DNA of 64,000 bases from Candidatus Caldarchaeum subterraneum (GTDB lineage Archaea; Thermoproteota; Nitrososphaeria_A; Caldarchaeales; Caldarchaeaceae). Position numbers and translations under genes: made by a program. The stretch spans positions 1,605,481 to 1,669,480 of the forward strand of contig BA000048.1 of assembly GCA_000270325.1 (NCBI GenBank). Reading direction: 5' to 3'. How positions within the stretch are numbered: the stretch's first letter is position 1; every line of letters begins with the position of its first letter. Shown piece by piece: positions 54,517 through 58,372 of this stretch. A model generated the notes under the pieces. It ran no database searches, was not told the DNA's origin, and was given only the letters and a program-made list of their open reading frames with translations.

Positions 54517-55536
54517 GTGAAAGCGGTGCGGGTTAGAGTCGGTGGAGGCGTGGAGGTTGTTGACGTTGATGTTCCAGAGGTTGGCGAGGGTGAGCTGCTT
54601 GTCGAGATGAGGATGTGCGGTGTAGACGGCACAGACCTTGAGAAAGCATTCGGCAGACCTTTAACACCGCCGATGCTGGGCCACGAGGTTGTTGGAGTTG
54701 TGGCCGAATCCCGTGCTGAAGGGTTTGAGGAAGGTGACAGAGTCTTCGTTCATCACCATGTTACCTGCGGAAAATGCTACTACTGCAGAGAAGGGTCTCC
54801 AACCATGTGTCCGCTTTTTTTGCAGACAAGCATAGACCCATGTGGATTCGCCGAGTTTTTCAGGGTCCCACGCGTCAACGTGGAGAGGGGTGCGGTACTA
54901 CGTTTGCCTGATGAGCTGGAGTGGAGCGAAGCCGTGTTCATCGAGCCCGCGGCATGTGTCTTGAGGGCGTTGAGGAGAGCGGGGTTCCGGGCCGGACATA
55001 CTCTCTCACTTGTCGGAGCGGGGCCAACCGGCACCATCTTCATAGTGATGGCTAAGGCTTTCGGAGCTCCTGTGGTCGCTGTCTCTGAGCTCTCCAAGTA
55101 TAGACGAGATATGGCTCTGGAAAACGGCGCCGACGCTGCCGTGGACCCGTTGAGCGAGGATTTTGCGAAAAAATGCAGGGAGTTGACCGACGGACTCGGC
55201 GTCGACATCGCCGTCCTCGCAACACCCGCCGCCAAACCACTCTCAACGGCCCTCGACAGCCTACGCAGAGGCGGAACACTGCTATTGTTCGGAGCGCCCG
55301 AGAAAGGCGAGAAGACGGAAGTCGATTTCAGCAGGCTCTTCATAGAGGAGAAAAACATCGTGACCAGCTACTCCACCACCGAAGCAGAGACAAACACGGT
55401 GCTCCACATGCTCACGAAGAAAGTTTTCACACTGAAACAACTCATCACACACACCTACTCTCTTGAGAAAGCGGAGGAGGCGTTTCAGAGGGCCCGTGAC
55501 CCAAACACAAGCCTCAAGGTTGTTTTGACCAGTTAG
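54517..55536 (+). CDS. zinc-dependent alcohol dehydrogenase (MDR family; threonine/sorbitol DH-like)
   Basis: GHE motif, structural Zn Cys cluster, GAGPTG Rossmann. Confidence 0.85.
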   Translation: MKAVRVRVGGGVEVVDVDVPEVGEGELLVEMRMCGVDGTDLEKAFGRPLTPPMLGHEVVGVVAESRAEGFEEGDRVFVHHHVTCGKCYYCREGSPTMCPLFLQTSIDPCGFAEFFRVPRVNVERGAVLRLPDELEWSEAVFIEPAACVLRALRRAGFRAGHTLSLVGAGPTGTIFIVMAKAFGAPVVAVSELSKYRRDMALENGADAAVDPLSEDFAKKCRELTDGLGVDIAVLATPAAKPLSTALDSLRRGGTLLLFGAPEKGEKTEVDFSRLFIEEKNIVTSYSTTEAETNTVLHMLTKKVFTLKQLITHTYSLEKAEEAFQRARDPNTSLKVVLTS

Positions 55537-56570
55537 CTTTTAATGGCTACCTTGATGTGTTTTCCCTGTCTAAGCTCCTCGAAAACCCTGTGAATGTCCT
55601 CGAGACGTGCTTCGCCTGTTATGAGTTTTTCGAAGGGTAGCTTCTTTGACTCGAGAAGTCTGAGGGCTCTTACGACGTCTTGGGGTGTGTGGTGGAAGGA
55701 GCCGTGGAGGCTGAGTTCACCGTAGTGGATAGTGTGGGTGTCGGCTGTGAGCTTTGTGCCTCCGGGTGGGCCGCCGAAGAAGAGGACGGTGCCGCCTTTC
55801 CGAACAAGTGTCAACGCCCTCTCCCATGTCTCCGGAAGACCCACAGCCTCTATCACAACATCTGCACCGATGCCGCCCGTCTCCTCGAGGACACGTTTCC
55901 TCGCATCCTCTTCACCGCTGTTGACCACGATGTCTGCTCCCAGCTCCGAGGCAAAGCGCAGCCTGTTCCAGTTTACGTCGAGGACAATCACCTTCCTCGC
56001 ACCCGATAACCGTGACAGCAACATGTGAAGCAACCCGATGGGCCCAGCTCCCACAACAGCCACAGCGTCTCCGACATCGATGTGAATCAGCCGCTGACCC
56101 CTCACCACACAGGCGAGGGGCTCAAGCAACGCCGCGACACGTGGTTCAAGGCCTTTGGGCAGCTTGTAGAGGTTGAAGGTTACGATGCGGCGGGGGAGCT
56201 TGATGTATTCCGCGTATGCTCCGTCGACGCTGAACCCGATTATTGTTTCACCGAGGTTTTCGCAGAGGTTGAAGCGGCCGAGCTTGCAGTAGATGCAGTA
56301 GCCGCATGGCGCGGAGTTGGCTGCGACAACCTCATCACCCACGTTCACCCAGTCAACCTCTTCACCCACCTCGACAACCACACCCGCGAACTCATGCCCC
56401 ATTATCACAGGAGGCCTCGCATAAGGATGACCGCGGAGAAACATCTTCAAATCCGTTCCACAAGTAAGCGTCACAAACGTCCTAACCAACACCTCACCTC
56501 TTCCAGGCGAAGGCCTCCCAACATCCATCACACGAAGGTCACCAGGCCCGTGAAAAACAGCAGCCCTCAA
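55533..56570 (-). CDS. zinc-dependent alcohol dehydrogenase (MDR family)
   Basis: GHEFAGVV, CGYCIYCKLGRFNLC, VVGAGPIGLL; probable TTG start at 56570 (MRAAVFHGPGDLRV); longer ATG ORF runs into 16S flank. Confidence 0.8.
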   Translation of the reverse strand: MRAAVFHGPGDLRVMDVGRPSPGRGEVLVRTFVTLTCGTDLKMFLRGHPYARPPVIMGHEFAGVVVEVGEEVDWVNVGDEVVAANSAPCGYCIYCKLGRFNLCENLGETIIGFSVDGAYAEYIKLPRRIVTFNLYKLPKGLEPRVAALLEPLACVVRGQRLIHIDVGDAVAVVGAGPIGLLHMLLSRLSGARKVIVLDVNWNRLRFASELGADIVVNSGEEDARKRVLEETGGIGADVVIEAVGLPETWERALTLVRKGGTVLFFGGPPGGTKLTADTHTIHYGELSLHGSFHHTPQDVVRALRLLESKKLPFEKLITGEARLEDIHRVFEELRQGKHIKVAIKS

Positions 56571-56674
56571 CCAAACACCCCACACTAAACCAAAACAGCC
56601 GACATAAAAACAAACAACACGAGCCAAGCCCAATCCACATCCTCACACAGCCACCCAGGCAGGAGTACGGTACA

Positions 56675-58167
56675 GGAGGTGATCCGGCCACACGTTCCCG
56701 TGCGGCCACCTTGTTACGACTTCTGCCCCCTCACCAGAACCGGGCTCGAACCCGCCAACGAGACGGGCCCTCGCCCAGTTCCAGCTCGGGTGCAGCGACG
56801 GGCAGTGTGTGCAAGGAGCGGGGACGTATTCACCGCCCGGTGGTAACGGGCGGTTACTAGGGATTCCGCGTTCACGAGGGCGAGTTGCAACCCTCGATCC
56901 CTACTGAGGTGGGGTTTAGGGATTGGCTTCCCCTTTCGGGGTCGCAGCCCACTGTCCCCACCATTGAACGTCGCGTGCGGCCCGGGGGATTCGGGGCATA
57001 CTGACCTGCCGTAGCCCGCTCCTTCCTCCCCGTTTCCGGGGCAGTCCCTCCAGAGTGCTCGGCGCCTTTCGGCCCGGTCGCAACTGGAGGCGCGGGTCTC
57101 GTCCGTTGCCTGAATTAACAGGACACCTCACGGCACGCACTGGCGACGGCCATGCACCTCCTCTCAGCTCGTCCGGCAAGGCCTTTAACCTGGCCATCAT
57201 CCTGCTGTCGCCCCCGGTAAGGTTTCCGGCGTTGACTCCAATTAAGCCGCAACGTCCACCCCTTGTGGTGCTCCCCCGCCAATTCCTTTAAGTTTCAGCC
57301 TTGCGGCCGTACTCCCCAGGCGGCGGGCTTAATGGTTTCCCTTCTGCACCGGAACGGCTCGTAGCCGCTCCGACGCCAAGCCCGCATCGTTTACGGCTGG
57401 GACTACCGGGGTATCTAATCCCGATCGCTCCCCCAGCTTTCGTCCCTCACCGTCGGGCGTGTTCTGGGCAGCCGCCTTCGCCACTGGTGGTCCTCCCGGG
57501 ATCAGTGGATTTTACCCCTACCCCGGGAATACCGCTGCCCTCTCCCACCCCCAAGCCCGGCAGTCATCCGCGCGGCCCAGCAGTTAGGCTGCTGGATTTA
57601 ACGCGGAGCACGCCGAGCCGGCTACGGACGCTTTAAGCCCAGTAATAGTCCTCACCACTCGCGGAGCGGGTATTACCGCGGCGGCTGACACCCGTCTTGC
57701 CCCCCGCTTATTCGCGCAGCTTTTTACACTGCGCAAAAGCCACCACGAGGGTGGCACTCGGGGTGACCCCGTCACGCGTGAGCGCATTGCGGAGGTTTCG
57801 CGCCTGCTGCGCCCCGTAGGGCCTGGACTCTTGTCTCAGAGTCCATCTCCGGGCTCCCCCTCTCAGGGCCCGTACCCGTTATAGGCTTGGTGGGCCGTTA
57901 CCCCACCAACTACCTGATGGGCCGCAGCCCCATCCTGAGGCATGTACACAGGCATCCCCGTGTACATCTTTCGGCGAGAGGTCGTTCCAGATCCTCTCAC
58001 CTATGGCGGTTTATGCACCAGTTTCCCGGTGTTATCCGCCTCCTCAGGGTAGGTTGGCCACGTGTTACTGAGCCGTACGCCAGGCCCACAGGTGGCTATG
58101 GGCCTAGACTTGCATGGCTTAGTCTCCCCCCGATAGCAGTGAGGTCCGGCAGGATCAACCGGAGTCG
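56675..58167 (-). rRNA. rrs: 16S ribosomal RNA (~1493 nt, no intron)
   Basis: 5' CTCCGGTTGATCCTGCCGGA and 3' ...GGATCACCTCCT read on the minus strand; 515F/1492R-type conserved blocks present; flanks show complementary CCCAGGCA/TGCCTGGG for processing stem. Confidence 0.95.
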
Positions 58168-58339
58168 TGCCTGGGGATTACGGCTGCGGAGGATTTTGTG
58201 GGGGCTTGGCCCGTGTTAAGACCTGATCGTGATTGTATCAGGTCCTCATCTTGTGCCCCTGGTAGGAGGCCGAGCCATCAACCCGTGGGAGTGTCTCTCC
58301 CTTTGTCGGTCCGGTCGGAGCCGCCTTCTCGACCGGGGC

Positions 58340-58372
58340 AACTTATACAACTACTTGTGTTCTTATAAATAT
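58340..58372. promoter_or_regulatory. AT-rich bidirectional promoter region (TTATAAATATT) for 16S (minus) and ybaK-like gene (plus)
   Basis: Only strongly AT-rich TATA-like element between 16S 5' end and downstream CDS. Confidence 0.4.

Follow-up and report, generated by a model that had tools for sequence, protein, structure and literature searches.

The DNA analysed here is a 64,000-nt stretch of the Candidatus Caldarchaeum subterraneum contig BA000048.1, hereafter the window, and the element in question is its 16S ribosomal RNA (rRNA) gene. This gene is located on the minus strand and is followed, on the same strand, by a gene for a zinc-dependent alcohol dehydrogenase (ADH) in place of a 23S rRNA gene. 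The Rfam model of archaeal small-subunit (SSU) rRNA, RF01959, matched it over model positions 1-1478 of 1478 and scored 1442.5 bits (gathering score 50), which identifies it as an archaeal SSU rRNA. Its 3' end reads ...GGATCACCTCCT at 56674. An earlier note on this DNA, made from the sequence alone, had put that end at 56675 and the ADH gene about 105 nt further on; the gene, the region of its end and the shortness of the gap were confirmed, while both figures had to be corrected, the latter to 103 nt. The G+C content of the window is about 52%, close to the 51.6% given for the genome in a passage of PMC3082918. Positions 58147-62341 are 100% identical to a Logan contig from run DRR000020. The features of the locus are collected in Table 1.

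Table 1. Features of the 16S rRNA locus and of its surroundings in the window
Feature	Positions	Strand	Remarks
16S (SSU) rRNA gene	56674..58165	-	1492 nt (full length), intron-free, 64% G+C; Rfam RF01959
Putative 16S promoter TATA box ATTTATAA	58363..58370	-	A/T-rich, TTTATAA-like; promoter function inferred
5' leader (external transcribed spacer)	58166..58340	-	about 175 nt, highly conserved, internal hairpins
16S processing helix, 5' strand	58168..58217	-	with 3-nt A bulge within 58194-58197; cofold and covariation
16S processing helix, 3' strand	56616..56661	-	with 3-nt bulge AUU at 56632-56634; cofold and covariation
T-rich tract TTGTTTGTTTTTATG	56602..56616	-	right after the helix; likely 16S terminator and/or ADH TATA-like box
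Zn-dependent alcohol/polyol dehydrogenase (ADH) gene	55533..56570	-	345 aa, TTG start; same strand as 16S, 103 nt after it; Pfam ADH_N and ADH_zinc_N
YbaK-type aminoacyl-tRNA editing domain gene	58420..58890	+	transcribed away from the 16S promoter; Pfam tRNA_edit; gene call in L001
46-aa open reading frame (ORF)	58928-59068		between the tRNA-editing gene and 5S
5S rRNA gene	59095..59211	+	930 nt upstream of 16S, opposite strand; Rfam RF00001, 78 bits
tRNA, 101 nt	61294..61394	+	Rfam, 58 bits; counterpart in L003

The earlier claim of an unlinked 16S gene with no 23S gene in the 64 kb was borne out by two kinds of search. Rfam gave no large-subunit (LSU) rRNA match in the whole window at the gathering thresholds, and none even at E<=1 in a permissive search of positions 54000-62000. 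Probing the window with five archaeal 23S sequences from related loci likewise produced just chance matches of 13-46 nt (E of at least 0.16). The 16S gene is thus surrounded in the window by 23S-free sequence over 56.6 kb downstream and 5.8 kb upstream. With no 23S gene within 1500 bp, it is unlinked in the sense of Brewer et al. (2020, preprint), who apply the term to 16S and 23S genes more than 1500 bp apart. A protein search meant to reach the 23S locus of this genome, made with a spurious antisense ORF of the 23S gene of a distantly related contig (L144, described below), returned 32 matches, none of them on the contig of this genome.

The earlier description of the downstream gene as a well-supported Zn-ADH was likewise confirmed. 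Its product is 100% identical to an NCBI dehydrogenase of Ca. Caldarchaeum subterraneum and matches nearly the whole of two Pfam profiles, ADH_N (GroES-like, 1e-25) and ADH_zinc_N (Rossmann, 1e-28), and the GHE, Cys-rich cluster and GxGxxG motifs are seen in the translation. Homologs bear the JGI name L-iditol 2-dehydrogenase. The ratio of non-synonymous to synonymous substitution rates (dN/dS) is 0.03 and 0.06 in comparison with two close relatives, indicating strong purifying selection. The ORF as listed, and the database protein, comprise 366 aa from a TTG at 56633; the additional part (56571-56633) would share positions with the processing helix of the 16S, on its 3' strand. Since nearly all the closest homologs are 345 aa long, we take the TTG at 56570 as the true start, from which the 103-nt gap follows; the annotation probably begins the gene 21 codons too soon. 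A Shine-Dalgarno-like GGTG is found directly ahead of the start codon. At its other end the ADH gene converges with a second Zn-dependent dehydrogenase gene (54517-55536, plus strand), the two ends overlapping by 4 nt, and this convergent pair is kept in every relative with ADH.

On the 5' side of the 16S gene, the A/T-rich box ATTTATAA is conserved in 8 of 8 aligned relatives, the leader alignments having taken in L003, L148, L128, L131, L136, L152 and L140. Strong conservation of the leader starts at TGCCCCGG near 58340, about 25 nt downstream of the box, a spacing that corresponds to the geometry expected of an archaeal TATA box and its transcription start. Because of this spacing and of the onset of conservation, we place the putative transcription start near 58340, and transcription from this point would produce the leader of about 175 nt.

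When the two flanks are cofolded, a long helix forms between the trailer (56616-56661) and the final 50 nt of the leader (58217-58168); the helix is predicted in three species, with cofold energies of -77 to -78 kcal/mol. It is supported by covariation: over 8 relatives, 83.8% of cells were paired at the counted pairs, against 28-45% in slid controls, changes on both sides were found at nine pairs, and 0 of 500 shuffles reached the result of the helix. These counts cover the outer and central helices of a hand-written structure, the inner helix, out of register in the MAFFT alignment, being omitted; they were restricted in this way because, in an RNAalifold run on the joined flanks, the trailer was paired to the 16S 3' end, which served as an artificial anchor. 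The helix contains two 3-nt bulges on opposite strands (AUU and AAA), with 5 bp between them at minimum energy and 4 bp only if the pairing slips in the A-run. The leader and the 3' trailer would thus form a bulge-helix-bulge-like site, at which the archaeal splicing endonuclease would cut out the pre-16S; such sites in pre-rRNA are the usual substrate of this enzyme (PMC12918454). An extra pairing of 58304-58342 with 56560-56604, which pulled the ADH start into the helix in the first cofold, is G-U-rich, rivals a local leader hairpin and extends beyond the T-run, and it was not relied on.

Directly past the helix comes the T-rich tract TTGTTTGTTTTTATG. When the 3' flanks were read by eye, a T run of at least 5 was found shortly after the helix in 9 of 11 distinct flanks of the Caldarchaeum clade, and TTTTTAT(A/G) is kept among the three closest lineages. 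An A/T-rich TATA-like box is located 30-45 nt upstream of the ADH start. The T-run may represent a terminator, with an independent ADH promoter behind it or overlapping it: the run would probably end 16S transcription, and ADH would probably be driven by its own A/T-rich promoter box inside the gap between the two genes. We consider it highly probable that the single 16S gene of Ca. Caldarchaeum subterraneum constitutes a transcription unit of its own, physically apart from the 23S gene.

Two ways of reconciling the locus with a linked 16S-23S arrangement had to be weighed. According to one of them, the junction between 16S and ADH is an artefact of a genome stitched together from fosmids, and the real locus reads 16S-23S. 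A passage of PMC3082918 does state that many fosmids went into the composite genome, and rRNA genes are common break points of assemblies; several MAG and Logan contigs (L004, L005 and L006) end exactly at the 16S gene. Yet the junction recurs in four metagenome-assembled genomes (MAGs; L003, L039, L068 and L066) and in ten JGI/ENA metagenome contigs (L128, L131, L132, L136, L137, L138, L139, L143, L147 and L149) whose 16S is 92-99.5% identical to that of the window, and no LSU rRNA was found in any of these junction-bearing relatives. In the Caldarchaeum MAG L003, with 16S exons 98% and ADH 82% identical, the gene order is the same, the 5S gene, the 46-aa ORF and the tRNA-editing gene lying on one strand and the 16S gene, followed by ADH 114 nt later, on the other. 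The earlier note had named, as a refutation, a 23S gene uncovered immediately downstream once a mis-assembly was corrected; because at least 14 independent assemblies, produced in different studies, run across the same junction, a mis-assembly is ruled out. The 3' strand of the helix, moreover, sits between 16S and ADH and covaries with the 5' strand. The artefact is effectively refuted already, and we give it next to no credence. According to the other, ADH is a decaying gene or a false ORF in a very long spacer, with the 23S gene further on, an eventuality that the earlier note had also raised in the form of a pseudogene inside a long internal transcribed spacer. There is a precedent of sorts in the distantly related contigs L144 and L129, in which protein genes precede a 23S gene on the same strand 3.6-4.7 kb on. 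The full-length domains, the homolog-typical length and the low dN/dS of ADH, together with the lack of any LSU rRNA over the 56.6 kb of window that follow the 16S gene, make this explanation extremely improbable as well.

Other points do weigh against reading the 16S gene as a separate and independently processed unit. The transcription start, the endonuclease cut, the termination and the independent ADH promoter are all inferred from the sequence. The modelled central helix has 5 bp at minimum energy, and the canonical 4 bp needs a slipped register in a run of four A. A 2026 study reports that 16S circularisation is absent from some archaea, most of which have separated rRNA genes (PMC12918454), so processing by the endonuclease is not guaranteed. 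The presence of the 23S gene elsewhere in the genome is taken from passages of PMC3082918 and of the PMC8997704 supplement rather than from the sequence. Lastly, 16S and ADH could be co-transcribed, the ADH mRNA arising by read-through and helix cleavage, with an expression that would track rRNA synthesis. The two genes lie on the same strand and close together, their adjacency persists in relatives whose ADH is as little as about 70% identical, and the Shine-Dalgarno-like GGTG stands just ahead of the ADH start. Against this stand the conserved T-run right after the helix, T-runs being an archaeal termination signal, and the TATA-like box that follows it. The association is not obligatory either, since a luciferase-like monooxygenase gene is found next to the 16S gene in Archaeon HR01 (L086 1190-2295), whose 16S, over the 612 available nt, is 99% identical to that of the window, and since L007 has ADH without 16S; the HR01 arrangement may be either a local rearrangement or a chimeric contig. 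Co-transcription appears unlikely to us, and we retain a 16S unit with a probable promoter and terminator of its own.

We also compared the linkage of 16S and 23S across related lineages, using GTDB species representatives that share the helix-45 variant of this 16S, C. subterraneum itself not being among the matches listed; the counts apply to these matches and describe a sample biased to that variant, not a census. In Caldarchaeales, 4 of 4 loci for which 2 kb or more of downstream sequence is available have no 23S gene. Bathyarchaeia comprise at least 56 loci without 23S within 2 kb or more, versus at least 6 linked ones. All 13 Nitrososphaerales loci with enough downstream sequence are linked, and so are the sampled loci of Nitrosocaldus, Conexivisphaerales, Thermofilaceae, Methanomethylicia, Marsarchaeota and Brockarchaeota, one Thermofilaceae locus excepted. 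No 23S was detected in the 3.8 kb downstream of 16S in Wolframiiraptor gerlachensis, in the 2.3 kb downstream in Archaeon HR01, or in the 5-14 kb downstream in the more distant environmental relatives L130, L135, L140 and L142. The absence of 23S after 16S in its relatives supports the unlinked reading of the window and, as it extends to all Caldarchaeales with enough downstream sequence among the matches listed, makes this layout the norm of the clade and not an exception. The earlier note had presented the locus as an exception to the linkage usual in Crenarchaeota. Unlinked it is, but the host is an aigarchaeote and no classical crenarchaeote, since NCBI places the species in Nitrososphaerota, order Caldarchaeales, for which this layout is normal.

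The unlinked layout of this genome is already known since 2011. Passages of the genome paper by Nunoura et al. (PMC3082918) describe 'a single rRNA gene set' whose members are not organised as an operon, and the supplement of Juettner and Ferreira-Cerca (2022; PMC8997704) enters the 16S of BA000048.1 under one heading and its 23S under another; it also contains an aigarchaeotal single-cell genome with an NADH-quinone oxidoreductase gene after 16S. Published for this genome and normal among its relatives, the layout is therefore ordinary. Neither the promoter and leader nor the processing helix, the neighbouring ADH or conservation across relatives is described in the searched passages of PMC3082918 and PMC8997704.

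A scan of metagenomes, whose signature was a U at the position of E. coli C1400, also brought up a distant lineage with 16S 82-87% identical to that of the window (L145, L144 and L129). In L145 the genes are linked, in the order 16S, a 148-nt spacer, 23S and RNase P RNA. In L144 (3972-7582) the 16S and 23S genes are on the same strand and 3.6 kb apart, with genes for a Zn-dependent phospholipase C-like protein and a zinc-ribbon/Thr-rich protein between them. In L129 (442-5170) they are 4.7 kb apart, again on the same strand, the genes of the L144 spacer being joined by a ferritin-like gene. RNase P RNA comes after 23S in the gene-interrupted lineage (L144/L129) too. A rough neighbour-joining tree, built without support values, places these lineages as sister to the unlinked Caldarchaeum, L140 and Wolframiiraptor. 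This suggests, without amounting to proof, that unlinking may have proceeded via the insertion of genes into the spacer. Our tentative proposal, which we regard as possible but rather doubtful, is that the Caldarchaeum area of the tree preserves successive stages in the break-up of an rRNA operon, linked in L145, interrupted in L144 and L129, and separated in Caldarchaeum and Wolframiiraptor. If so, unlinking would have begun with protein genes entering the spacer, and the clade would offer a natural series for how rRNA genes become independent, including the question of whether the T-run after 16S also serves as promoter box for the gene that comes next. Every archaeal rRNA has a processing helix of its own, so that a separated 23S would mainly need its own promoter.

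Several further observations were made on the 16S genes. Introns are present in the 16S of close relatives (L003 5754-9887, L039 52-1973, L068 205-2849, L128, L136 and L143), located after positions ~754, 873, 943 and 1030 in L003 and after ~943 and 1168 in L039; the allele of the window has none. Intron-bearing and intron-free 16S alleles within the same population were described by Nunoura et al. (2011), in a passage of PMC3082918. At about 56803 on the minus strand the 16S contains the motif GCACACACTGCCCGTC, with a U at the E. coli C1400 position, in the decoding centre and inside the site of the universal 1392R primer. This U is common to all the Caldarchaeum-like loci and to L048, L056 and L063; a C occupies the position in Wolframiiraptor and in 94 other Thermoproteota loci. 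To our knowledge, this position is almost universally C.

Upstream of the 16S gene and on the opposite strand, the 5S gene is positioned downstream of the tRNA-editing gene and of the 46-aa ORF, a cluster conserved in L003 and L128. The neighbourhood of the tRNA-editing gene is kept in L003, L128, L131, L136, L143 and L148. The tRNA that Rfam finds at 61294-61394 was missed by ARAGORN, which detected none in the window, presumably because this tRNA holds an intron.

The unlinked layout matters little on its own, as it is reported in the 2011 genome paper and as this condition of the rRNA genes is by now recognised as common among archaea. What our analysis adds is modest. The layout appears fixed across the order and is no quirk of one assembly; the lone 16S retains a full set of putative promoter, leader and processing helix; and the linked and gene-interrupted sister lineages could help to reconstruct how unlinking happened.

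Unlinked archaeal rRNA genes have been known since Thermoplasma and are now called frequent in TACK, Asgard and DPANN archaea (Brewer et al. 2020; PMC12918454; passages of PMC8997704). As in Thermoplasma acidophilum and other Thermoplasmatales (Tu and Zillig 1982, as cited in a passage of PMC8997704), the 16S and 23S of Caldarchaeum are separate units of a single-copy set in a thermophilic archaeon. Thermoplasmatales belong to another phylum, however, and have all three rRNA genes dispersed, whereas Caldarchaeum has its 5S gene 930 nt from 16S, on the opposite strand, and keeps a strong processing helix. Bathyarchaeia, Asgard and DPANN archaea (Brewer et al. 2020; PMC8997704; PMC12918454) resemble Caldarchaeum in having a lone 16S with protein genes next to it; they are other lineages, and the neighbouring genes are unrelated. 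From the canonical crenarchaeal 16S-23S operon with bulge-helix-bulge processing, Caldarchaeum differs in that no 23S comes next and that its trailer gives way to a T-run and a protein gene where the operon has an internal spacer; it shares a conserved putative TATA promoter, a leader and a flank helix with two 3-nt bulges on opposite strands.

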